DNA of 64,000 nt from Chloroflexota bacterium. Lineage in GTDB: Bacteria > Chloroflexota > UBA11872 > VXOZ01. The notes beneath the pieces were generated by a model that saw only the letters and a program-made list of their open reading frames with translations, did not search any database and had not been told where the DNA came from. The stretch is from assembly GCA_963662335.2 (NCBI GenBank), contig CAXXVD010000002.1, positions 384,001 to 448,000 of the forward strand, read 5' to 3'. Numbering within the stretch: position 1 is the stretch's first letter; every line of letters begins with the position of its first letter. The translations under genes were made by a program, and so were the position numbers. Positions 26,813-29,568 of the stretch are shown piece after piece.

Positions 26813-28324
26813 ATGGCGGAAAACGGGCCGTGTACCACGGCGCAGATGGAACGCCAAGCGGATGACGCCGCACCTAGCGAAGACGCCGCTCCAAACGCGG
26901 TTGCGGCAACCGACGCCCGCGCCCGCAGCCTGGCCCTTAACGAGCGCGTGCCGTCCAGCGGCTTGTTCGGCGAGGCCGACCGTCCCCTGGTAGAGGGGTC
27001 CCGCGCTTCCTGGCGCATCGCGCCGGAGCCGTTCCTCATCACGCCCGCTAGTTACGAGAACCTGTGCCAACTGGGCGAGCGGCTGCTGGCGTTCTACGGC
27101 GCCGCGAACCGGCTCTACAAGCGCAGCGTGCGCGGCACCATTCCCGCCTTCTTCCACGAATACCTTGACCTGGGCAAGAGCGAGACCGTTATCGACTACG
27201 GCCGCATGAACCGCTTCCGGCGCGACCTGCCGGGCGTAATCCGGCCCGACCTCTTGCTCACCACCGATGGCGTGAAGGCCGCCGAACTCGATTCCGTGCC
27301 CGGCGGCATCGGCCTCACCGGCAGTATGCAGCAGCACTACGCCAGCCTGGGATTCAACATGGCCGGCGGCGCGAACGGTATGGTGGAAGGCTTTGGCGCG
27401 ATGATTCGCGGCCGCGCGGCCACGGACGACCCAAAGCTGGCGATTGCGGTATCCGATGAGTCCAACGACTACCGTCCCGAGATGCAGTGGGTTGCCGAGC
27501 AATTGCGGGCCTTGGGCATGGAGAGCGCGTGCGCCAGGCCGGAAGAGATCGAGTTGCACGGCGACGGCCTCACCCTTGGGGGCCGGCCGGTGGATACGCT
27601 CTACCGCTTCTTCGAACTCTTCGACCTGAAGAATATCCCGAACTACGACCTGCTCCTCTACGCCGTGCGCAAGCAACTGGTCGCCATGACGCCGCCGGTG
27701 AAGGCGTATCTGGAAGAAAAACTGCTCTTCGCGCTCTTCCACCATCCGGCGCTGGCCGAGCACTGGCGGCAGGAGATGGGCGCGAAGACCGTGGCCGCCT
27801 TGCGCGGCGTCATCCCGCAGACGTGGATCCTCGACCCGCGCGCCTTGCCGCCGCAGGCGGTGGTGCCGGGGCTGGAAATCGCCAAGCGGCCGGTGACGAA
27901 TTTCGACCAACTCAAGGGACTGAGCCAGGCGGAGCGGCGGTTGGTGATCAAGCCCTCAGGCTACTCCGCCACCGCCTGGGGCAGCCGGGGCGTGACCATC
28001 GGCCACGACCGGCCCGAAACGGAGTGGGACGCTGCCGTGCAGACCGCGCTCGCTGCGTTTGCGCAGACGCCCCACGTCTTGCAGAAGTTTCACCACGGCA
28101 AGCGCTACGCCACCCGCTACTATGACTTCGAGCGCGACACCGTGCGCCGCATGAACGGCCGCGTGCGCTTTAGTCCCTACTACTTCGTGGTGAATGACGA
28201 AACGCGCTTGGGCGGCGTGCTGGTGACAATCGTGCCGGCGGACAAGAAACTCATCCACGGCATGGTGGACGCGGTGATGGTACCCGCCGCCGTGAGCGAC
28301 GACGGGATAGAACTCGACCTATAG
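26813..28324 (+). CDS. circularly permuted ATP-grasp (glutathionylspermidine-synthetase-like) ligase of unknown substrate
   Basis: IRPDLL...ELDSVPGGIG, LYRFFELFD, EEK..FA, LVIKPSG...WGSRGVTIG, VLQ.F. Confidence 0.75.
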   Translation: MAENGPCTTAQMERQADDAAPSEDAAPNAVAATDARARSLALNERVPSSGLFGEADRPLVEGSRASWRIAPEPFLITPASYENLCQLGERLLAFYGAANRLYKRSVRGTIPAFFHEYLDLGKSETVIDYGRMNRFRRDLPGVIRPDLLLTTDGVKAAELDSVPGGIGLTGSMQQHYASLGFNMAGGANGMVEGFGAMIRGRAATDDPKLAIAVSDESNDYRPEMQWVAEQLRALGMESACARPEEIELHGDGLTLGGRPVDTLYRFFELFDLKNIPNYDLLLYAVRKQLVAMTPPVKAYLEEKLLFALFHHPALAEHWRQEMGAKTVAALRGVIPQTWILDPRALPPQAVVPGLEIAKRPVTNFDQLKGLSQAERRLVIKPSGYSATAWGSRGVTIGHDRPETEWDAAVQTALAAFAQTPHVLQKFHHGKRYATRYYDFERDTVRRMNGRVRFSPYYFVVNDETRLGGVLVTIVPADKKLIHGMVDAVMVPAAVSDDGIELDL

Positions 28325-28404
28325 AGCGCCGGTTCGCTACCTGCGGGCACATCCGGTAGCGCAGGTTTGCTACCTGCGGGGAACGCGGAGAACAAGGAGC
28401 CGCA

Positions 28405-29568
28405 ATGGCAATTTCGCAAACGCGCGTGAAACGAGAAAAAGACGAGTGGCAGGAGTTGCTCGCCGCCGGCATCAACCGGCCGGAGAAGCTCATCGCGGAG
28501 CTCGGCGAACGCCTCGGCCTGGACGATGCCACGGCCGCCAGCCTCCACGAAAACTTCCCGGTGCGCATCAATCCCTACTACCTCGGCTTGATCGAAGAGG
28601 TCAACGACCCCATCTGGCGGCAGGCCATTCCCGACGAGATGGAACTCGACCACAGCGATTCCCTCACCACCATGGATCCCTTGGCCGAGGACATGGACGC
28701 GCCGGTGCCGTATCTGACGCACCGCTACCCGGACCGGGTGCTGATGGTGGTGCAGTTGCAGTGCGCAATGTACTGCCGCTTCTGCACGCGCCGCCGCGAG
28801 GTCGGCAGCCGCAACGCCGTGAAGAAAGAAGATTGGGACCGCCAAATCGAGTACATCGCCACCCACCCGGAGGTGCGCGACGTGATCATCTCCGGCGGCG
28901 ACCCCTTCATGCTGCTCGACCACCAGATCGACTACATCTTGAAAGGCCTGCGGGCGATTCCGCACATGGAGATTATCCGCCTGGACTCGCGGATGCCGGT
29001 CACCCTGCCGCACCGCATTACGGAGAATCTCTGCGAAATCATGCAACGCTACCATCCGGTCTACCTGAACACCCACTTCAACCACCCACGAGAAATCACG
29101 CCGGAATCCACCCGCGCCTGCGAGCGCATGGCCGACTACGGCATCCCGCTCGGCAACCAGAGCGTGCTGCTGCGTGGCGTGAACGACGACCCGGAGGTGA
29201 TGAAGGAGCTTGTGCAGGGGTTGTTGAAGATTCGGGTCAAGCCCTACTACCTCTACCAGGCGGACCTGGTCACCGGCACCAGCCACTTCCGCACCGCCGT
29301 GGAAAAAGGCCTGGAAATCATCAAGGCCATCCAGGGCCACACCAGCGGCATGGCCGTGCCCCACTTCGTGATCGACGCGCCCCAGGGCGGCGGCAAAATT
29401 CCCGTGACGCCCGACTTCATCCAGGAAATCACCGACGACGAAATCGTGCTCAAGAACTACGAGGGCAAGGTCTACCGCTATCCGATCGACTCCGAGACGC
29501 CGAACGCGCGGGAGACGAAGGTGTCCCAGGCGCAATCGAACGGCAGGGACAACGCCGACGGCGTCTAA
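28405..29568 (+). CDS. kamA: KamA family radical SAM enzyme, lysine 2,3-aminomutase-like
   Basis: DPL.E, THRYPDR, CAMYCRFCTRRR, SGGDP, THFNHP.E, NQSVLL.GVND, YQAD, VIDAPQGGGKIP (PLP Lys). Confidence 0.92.
   Translation: MAISQTRVKREKDEWQELLAAGINRPEKLIAELGERLGLDDATAASLHENFPVRINPYYLGLIEEVNDPIWRQAIPDEMELDHSDSLTTMDPLAEDMDAPVPYLTHRYPDRVLMVVQLQCAMYCRFCTRRREVGSRNAVKKEDWDRQIEYIATHPEVRDVIISGGDPFMLLDHQIDYILKGLRAIPHMEIIRLDSRMPVTLPHRITENLCEIMQRYHPVYLNTHFNHPREITPESTRACERMADYGIPLGNQSVLLRGVNDDPEVMKELVQGLLKIRVKPYYLYQADLVTGTSHFRTAVEKGLEIIKAIQGHTSGMAVPHFVIDAPQGGGKIPVTPDFIQEITDDEIVLKNYEGKVYRYPIDSETPNARETKVSQAQSNGRDNADGV

Follow-up and report, generated by a model that had tools for sequence, protein, structure and literature searches.

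A predicted ATP-grasp ligase paired with a KamA-type lysine 2,3-aminomutase: a candidate route to a beta-lysine amide

What might a bacterium do with beta-lysine when the gene expected to provide it stands directly behind that of a ligase belonging to no named family? The question is raised by two genes in a 64,000-nucleotide stretch of a Chloroflexota genome (GenBank assembly GCA_963662335.2, contig CAXXVD010000002.1, positions 384,001 to 448,000 of the forward strand; this whole stretch is the window referred to below), the first encoding a predicted ATP-dependent amide ligase (P0001) and the second a short KamA-type lysine 2,3-aminomutase (P0002). A first-pass annotation of the window had described them as co-oriented, 80 bp apart and a candidate new beta-lysylation pathway. 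The layout was confirmed (Table 1), and we give a somewhat better than even chance to the reading that the pair makes a small beta-lysine amide that has not been described before. The known fates of beta-lysine are few: the modification of elongation factor P (EF-P) by EpmA, conversion to N-acetyl-beta-lysine by AblB, fermentation through KamDE, and incorporation into some antibiotics by nonribosomal peptide synthetases (NRPSs).

The aminomutase and the ligase

P0002 was recognised as a KamA-family radical S-adenosylmethionine (SAM) protein by model TIGR00238 (327.4 bits, cut-off 199.2). Its top aminomutase model was the AblA/KamA equivalog TIGR03820, on which it scored 467.9 bits, under the cut-off of 525.4; the scores on the glutamate, arginine and EpmB models were 419, 353 and 259 against cut-offs of 650, 600 and 369, respectively. 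When aligned to the Clostridium lysine 2,3-aminomutase 2A5H (E 4e-117), P0002 was seen to keep the CxxxCxxC cluster motif (CAMYCRFC), the Arg residues after it (CTRRR) and the pyridoxal phosphate (PLP) lysine in GGGK. Both of the Asp residues singled out in the first-pass annotation are also present: in a gapless part of the alignment D287 ('YQAD') corresponds to D293 of 2A5H and D324 ('VIDAP') to D330, two residues which we take to bind the epsilon-amine of lysine, and they are kept in 84/84 KamA-family rows. The reported lack of C-terminal zinc-binding cysteines was borne out as well. The zinc site of lysine 2,3-aminomutase is formed by Cys268 and three C-terminal Cys; P0002 has an Asp at the Cys268 position of 2A5H, and neither Cys nor CxCxxC occurs in the stretch of 57 residues that follows GGGK, so that the site is absent. 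The strong homology and the intact active-site residues argue that P0002, the product of the sole KamA-family gene in its genome, converts L-lysine to beta-lysine.

For P0001, no match was found among Pfam families (searched up to E 10), NCBIfam models or PDB sequences, and a profile of 39 family members gave 0 matches to PDB sequences. It was found to belong to none of PF03917, PF03199, PF03738, PF04174 and PF14403. The Pfam search at E 10, run on P0001 and nine distant members, yielded one sub-threshold match, to GSP_synth in a single distant member (E 6e-4), and PF03738 was found in 0/20 ligase-bearing genomes. The protein lacks a named family and is not the orphan it had been called: its homologues number in the thousands and are spread over at least nine phyla, with 6458 at E<=0.001 among the 8000 candidates scored. 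At the 50% identity level P0001 matches the representatives of 1052 clusters, of which 208 reach E<=1e-30. The 120 homologues listed carry no Pfam domain, and those named by their source are all 'hypothetical protein'. Members from different phyla are about 50% identical, and an alignment of 32 sequences has 76 invariant columns; residues 1-28 of P0001 are disordered and weakly conserved, and in longer family members of 520-587 aa the extensions contain no Pfam domain.

The proposal that P0001 has a circularly permuted ATP-grasp fold, of the glutathione synthetase/GspS type, is supported by an AlphaFold model built from the family alignment (pLDDT 86, pTM 0.88). Foldseek paired this model with glutathione synthetases, Cp1B, YjfC/YgiC and GspS (E 3e-16 to 1e-9, TM about 0.45-0.62), at a probability of 1.00 for 2HGS, 5OES, 3KAL, 9CJN, 3N6X, 7UK6 and 2IO8; the putative GspS 3N6X and trypanothione synthetase were among the pairings, and a search of the ESM Atlas returned the same named structural neighbours. 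At the sequence level, RPD (residues 144-146) never varies among 39 diverse homologues and ELD (158-160) is nearly invariant, and both motifs, together with EEK and the KPSG...AWGSRG loop, are conserved in homologue sets of 32 and 39. In GspS the Mg/ATP-binding acidic motif is RxD ... ExN. An hhalign alignment of P0001 with E. coli Gss (MG1655) sets R144-P-D146 against R316-M-D318 and E158-L-D160 against E330-Y-N332, with an E of 0.32 that is non-significant alone. The earlier claim that RPD and ELD stand where GspS has its motif is thus only suggested, by this one alignment. From the modelled fold and the conserved acidic and basic motifs, P0001 is predicted to be an ATP-dependent amide ligase that would act through an acyl phosphate.

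Linkage and co-occurrence across genomes

The neighbourhoods of 80 ligase loci, fetched from species genomes, were compared. A KamA homologue lies directly downstream of the ligase on the same strand in 37/80 of them (3 in Chloroflexota, 3 in Bacillota, 31 in Nitrospirota or unclassified), so that the linkage noticed in the window recurs in three phyla, amid unrelated surroundings. Within Chloroflexota the pair is adjacent in two of the three families that carry it; in the third the genes are 10-27 kb apart on one contig in 14/17 genomes. Neighbour analysis of the loci found no third gene beside the pair that is common across phyla, and no conserved small open reading frame (ORF) or carrier gene accompanies it in these loci; the 80-nt spacer cannot encode one.

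Where the ligase had no KamA next to it, a KamA-family gene was found elsewhere in all of the genomes searched whole (39/39, as 5/5 and 34/34). The unlinked KamA of Poribacteria is of the short form and 56-60% identical, and that of Latescibacterota, Eremiobacterota, Gemmatimonadota, Dormibacterota and Sericytochromatia is a protein of 455-480 aa, about 40% identical, which is here called type-2 KamA.

Presence and absence were then counted in three phylum samples. Among 301 Chloroflexota genomes, scored by any KamA-family match, 33 have both genes, 0 the ligase only, 76 KamA only and 192 neither; KamA is thus present in 33/33 genomes with the ligase as against 76/268 without it, and the 33 comprise every sampled member of three families (9/9, 6/6, 17/17). 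Among 101 Nitrospirota genomes, scored in the same way, the corresponding numbers are 48, 1, 3 and 49, the lone ligase-only genome having its ligase at a contig end. For the Latescibacterota phylum the type-2 orthologue was scored (E<=1e-99), and the 121 genomes divide into 80 with both, 5 with the ligase only, 2 with type-2 KamA only and 34 with neither. Two genomes in these sets are flagged unpublished: G232, one of the 76 Chloroflexota with KamA only, and G331, which belongs to the 34/34 set and is also a row of the ligase tree below. Ligase homologues therefore co-occur with KamA-family genes almost without exception.

A quick LG+G4 tree of KamA proteins (84 rows, with several long branches; four duplicates and one truncated row were dropped beforehand) placed 52 ligase-associated KamAs, 34 adjacent and 18 unlinked, in one clade (SH-aLRT 95) that contains 0/19 of the KamAs from ligase-less Chloroflexota. 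The three adjacent KamAs of Bacillota group with canonical KamAs outside this clade, and type-2 KamA forms a separate clade on a long branch (length 1.87). The ligase tree (77 rows, with ORFs under 380 aa left out) follows the phyla; ligases with type-1 and type-2 partners are interleaved in it and are therefore one family. Judging from the two trees, at least three KamA lineages serve this one ligase family, and Bacillota have recruited their KamA from another clade.

The pairing of ligase and KamA is no chance neighbourhood. It might be supposed that the two genes are nevertheless unrelated neighbours and that the ligase does not use beta-lysine, as the genes are apart in about half of the loci and KamA is common without the ligase; this is scarcely credible to us in view of the adjacency in three phyla amid unrelated surroundings, the nearly identical presence and absence in two of the phylum samples, and the KamA clade confined to ligase genomes.

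Several lineages show further genes around the pair or its members. In Nitrospirota the pair lies inside a larger conserved cluster, the extra genes of which were not found with the pair in other phyla: a divergent CxxCxxCC plus DUF2156 (LPG_synthase_C) gene, the ligase, a glutaredoxin-like gene between ligase and KamA (16 loci), KamA, a tandem Dcd-like protein (27 loci), an unknown 137-aa protein, GT2, DUF2064 and SDR (e.g. L033, L045). Lgt, an amidohydrolase and an ABC-2 exporter occur near the pair in Bacillota only. In one Peptococcaceae locus (L044:10388-13568) the ABC-2 type exporter, an ATPase with two permeases, overlaps the kamA stop codon, and in another Bacillota locus (L023:7723-9063) the amidohydrolase follows kamA; each is confined to a single lineage, and they might be a sign that the product is exported or turned over. 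In Latescibacterota and in one Gemmatimonadota genome (L066:9437-10486 and 10 further loci) the gene of a LarE-type sacrificial sulfur transferase (313 bits, cut-off 150) follows that of the ligase at 16 nt, and in 12 Poribacteria loci serA and the gene of a PhyH-family dioxygenase flank the ligase. Type-2 KamA (L091-L100, e.g. L097:7749-9131) is about 37% identical to P0002 and keeps both lysine-binding Asp; its gene overlaps an unknown 356-aa gene, itself preceded by an AsnC-type regulator, in Eremiobacterota, and lies between folE and rny/dxr in Latescibacterota.

Possible uses of the beta-lysine

In the reading that we favour, P0002 would convert L-lysine to beta-lysine by radical SAM/PLP chemistry, and P0001 would bind ATP and phosphorylate a carboxylate to an acyl phosphate, which an amine would then attack so that an amide forms; glutathione synthetase, homoglutathione synthetase, GspS and Cp1B work in this way. 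Beta-lysine would be one of the two ligase substrates, as the linkage and the co-occurrence suggest, and may serve as either the amine or the acyl donor; the other substrate would be a metabolite common in cells, given that the pair has no third gene as a constant companion. The product, probably a small molecule, may be a solute, a cofactor or a precursor, and would match the role of N-epsilon-acetyl-beta-lysine downstream of AblA/AblB, with ATP instead of acetyl-CoA as the driving compound.

Several known systems come close to this scheme. Glutathione-type synthetases form a small-molecule amide via an acyl phosphate; one of the substrates of homoglutathione synthetase is a beta-amino acid. 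The eukaryote-type glutathione and homoglutathione synthetases (2HGS, 8FBZ, 1M0W, 5OES, 3KAL) match the P0001 model over the full length of the fold (E 3e-16 to 2e-12, TM 0.52-0.62), but sequence similarity is not detectable (identity in these fold alignments is 12-15%), P0001 has no Pfam GSH_synth_ATP match, and its partner gene encodes an aminomutase. E. coli Gss, YgiC/YjfC and trypanothione synthetase share the fold as well (E 1e-11 to 4e-8), and the amine substrate of Gss is a polyamine, which resembles beta-lysine; P0001 differs from Gss in having no amidase domain and an Asp for the Asn of ExN, and in the non-significant hhalign value given above. In AblA/AblB an aminomutase is likewise coupled to a single enzyme that forms a beta-lysine amide. 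AblB, however, is a GNAT acetyltransferase where the pair has an ATP-grasp ligase, and AblA, although it gives the best NCBIfam model for P0002, is a family whose cut-off P0002 does not reach and whose zinc site it lacks. EpmA/EpmB resembles the proposed pair in joining a short KamA-type enzyme without the C-terminal zinc domain to an ATP-dependent attaching enzyme; in the present case EpmA was not found, the EF-P acceptor residue is Arg, and the ligase fold is unrelated to that of class II aminoacyl-tRNA synthetases. The fourth-ranking fold match (E 3e-14, TM 0.61) is Cp1B (9CJN) of E-64 biosynthesis, which is described as a fungal stand-alone ATP-grasp amide ligase of an NRPS-independent pathway with an epoxysuccinate substrate (PMC12568646); it is unlike P0001 in its fungal origin, its substrate and the lack of an aminomutase partner. 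The literature searched gave no description of a KamA gene paired with an ATP-grasp or glutathione-synthetase-like ligase, which suggests that the pathway is undescribed; the 2009 amidoligase survey of Iyer and colleagues, not covered by this search, could bear on the point.

A number of observations weigh against a dedicated small-molecule pathway of this kind. Ligase and KamA are apart in about half of the loci, and adjacency is never seen in the Latescibacterota phylum. Another KamA-family match is present in four of the five ligase-only genomes of that phylum and missing from the fifth. KamA does not need the ligase, as the 76/268 ligase-less Chloroflexota that carry a KamA-family gene demonstrate. 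Genomes within each sample are related, so that the counts overstate independence; the co-occurrence does, despite this kinship, recur in separate phyla. The type-2 partner is divergent, and lysine is only its putative substrate. Fused forms of the ligase were sought among proteins of 882-2515 aa and none was found, which is weak evidence. A macromolecular target, too, would be in keeping with the very high conservation (about 50% identity across phyla), the presence in every member of whole families and the location among housekeeping genes, and the substrate of the ligase is predicted from gene context, not from chemistry.

The order of the two steps could also be reversed, the ligase building a lysine conjugate on which KamA then shifts the amino group, or the ligase could act on another aminomutase product. 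Linkage and co-occurrence are silent on step order, the ligase gene precedes kamA in the operon, and the type-2 partners are divergent, as their branch length indicates. P0002, on the other hand, keeps both Asp and the Arg in CTRRR, residues that by structural work on 2A5H hold the epsilon-amine and the carboxylate of free lysine, and we know of no KamA-family enzyme that acts on a conjugate; we consider such an order improbable.

Whether a known fate could account for the beta-lysine was examined in the genome of the window, which is 96% complete. EpmA was not found: its model matched best (263 bits, cut-off 287) to the lysyl-tRNA synthetase, a protein to which the LysRS model gives 659 bits. 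AblB (TIGR03827) had no match, while the control was matched in 6/14 genomes. No match to the KamD model was obtained either, but this negative is uninformative, as the control matched nowhere. No BKACE/Kce and no NRPS condensation domain were found in this genome. The proposal that the new ligase consumes the beta-lysine of the adjacent KamA has thus withstood those refuting conditions of the first-pass annotation that computation can address, ligase homologues co-occurring with KamA and EpmA and AblB not being found; its EF-P branch fared otherwise.

That branch had envisaged an EpmA-independent beta-lysylation of EF-P, and the genome does have a KamA that is short, as EpmB is, with EpmA not found. 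In the EF-P of this genome (L141:1495-2061, contig 5), however, Arg32 aligns without gaps to Lys34 of E. coli, and because an Arg occupies the position of the modified Lys, beta-lysylation of EF-P is unlikely here. The tip is KxGRG in 4/4 Chloroflexota ligase genomes (this one and three of other families or genera, L142, L143 and L152). A KPGKG tip, which would suit the proposal, is present in the 16 EF-Ps from ligase genomes of other phyla (16/20 examined). With tips that differ in this way, beta-lysylation of EF-P is ruled out as a function shared by all these ligases. Moreover, P0002 is much nearer to the clostridial enzyme than to E. coli EpmB, with which it shares 35% identity and whose model it fails, and in the loci examined efp lies close to neither of the two genes. 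Taken together, we give next to no credence to EF-P as the target.

A different macromolecule is less easily set aside. The ligase could attach beta-lysine to a protein, peptide or cell-envelope component other than the EF-P tip lysine, with a C-terminal or side-chain carboxylate of the macromolecule as acyl donor; RimK, LysX/LysW and D-Asp ligase are ligases that use a macromolecule carboxylate. The unusual conservation of the family (the 76 invariant columns span several phyla) would agree with such a role, as would the presence of the ligase in every sampled member of whole families and the frequent position of both genes amid housekeeping genes, with serA beside the ligase in the 12 Poribacteria loci and folE, rny and dxr around type-2 KamA. 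All of its close structural neighbours, however, are small-molecule ligases, neither a conserved small ORF or carrier gene nor a cluster common across phyla goes with the pair, the spacer is too short to encode a carrier, and the EF-P tip of this genome has Arg. We regard a macromolecular target as unlikely. In its widest form, which we put forward with similar reserve as an unlikely speculation, the ligase family would offer a second route, independent of EpmA, by which beta-lysine is placed on a macromolecule: a conserved protein, a peptide or a part of the envelope, with the EF-P tip excepted. This would be a core function of nitrite oxidisers, sponge symbionts, Eremiobacterota and others, and KamA-type enzymes of three lineages, each recruited on its own, would serve it.

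The top fold matches, glutathione and homoglutathione synthetases, suggest one more product: a thiol peptide akin to glutathione in which beta-lysine replaces glycine, parallel to the use of beta-alanine by homoglutathione synthetase. The glutaredoxin-like gene in 16 Nitrospirota loci would suit it. The genome of the window, however, gave no match to GshB or to the two bacterial types of gamma-glutamylcysteine ligase (GCL), PF04107 and PF04262, in a search that did not extend to the eukaryote-type GCL, and a homologue of the Nitrospirota glutaredoxin-like protein was not found in it by a search run without a control. A thiol peptide is accordingly a very improbable product in our estimate.

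The small beta-lysine amide thus remains the reading that we prefer. An unannotated ligase family, thousands of members strong and spread over at least nine phyla, follows beta-lysine synthesis almost one-to-one, and its carriers include the main nitrite-oxidising Nitrospirota and dominant sponge symbionts. If the reading is true, a new metabolite or modification would be named and a large family of 'hypothetical proteins' would receive a function; a new substrate class would be added to the glutathione-synthetase-like ligases, and the presence of a radical SAM lysine aminomutase in aerobic bacteria without EpmA and AblB would be explained.

Layout and surroundings of the two-gene unit

Table 1. 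Features of the ligase-kamA unit and its flanks (positions in the window)
Feature	Position	Strand	Description
Hairpin 3' of the ORF at the ccmD position	26618..26668	+	20-nt arms, 95% complementary, 11 nt between them
Sigma-70-like promoter match	26737..26765	+	TTGGCA, 17 nt, TATGCT, with TG before; 48 nt 5' of the ligase start codon
Ligase gene (P0001)	26813..28324	+	503 aa; predicted ATP-dependent amide ligase, unnamed family
Spacer between ligase gene and kamA	28325..28404	+	80 nt; read from sequence
AAGGAG ribosome-binding site	28394-28399	+	inside the spacer, ahead of kamA; read from sequence
kamA gene (P0002)	28405..29568	+	387 aa; short KamA-type lysine 2,3-aminomutase, radical SAM and PLP
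Nested imperfect inverted repeats	29699..29811	.	3' of kamA, before the Gfo/Idh/MocA gene; arms of 23 nt and 19 nt, 87-89% complementary

Upstream of the pair lies a cytochrome c maturation (ccm) operon, in which Pfam matches identify CcmF, CcmH, a BNR-repeat protein, CcmA, CcmB and CcmC; a 59-aa ORF at 26429-26608 occupies the place expected for ccmD and is without a Pfam match. The hairpin behind this ORF probably ends the ccm operon, which would leave the ligase gene and kamA on a separate transcript. The promoter match is the sole promoter-like site in 26300-30100, where shuffled sequences average 0.5; it is a match to the consensus only. Together with the repeats 3' of kamA, which may be a terminator or a repeat element, the hairpin and the promoter match lead us to infer that the two genes form a transcription unit of their own. 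Rfam searches of 26300-30000 found no riboswitch, just two sub-threshold chance matches on the ccmD hairpin. Downstream of kamA follow genes for a Gfo/Idh/MocA oxidoreductase, a sulfatase and a sugar-isomerase-like protein. The fraction of G+C at third codon positions (GC3) is 0.86 for the ligase gene and 0.88 for kamA, in line with the adjoining genes.

Some minor features were also observed. In the ccm row, the BNR/Asp-box repeat protein, which has Ycf48-like Pfam matches, is encoded at 21410-22684 between ccmH and ccmA, and no gene was called in the roughly 1.3 kb that follow it (22685-24037). Over 29699-29894, 3' of kamA, several nested imperfect inverted repeats are built on the core GTCATTCCGA / TCGGAATGAC and may be a repeat element. 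In the spacer between the ligase gene and kamA the motif GCTACCTGCGG occurs twice, and alternative hairpins are possible there.

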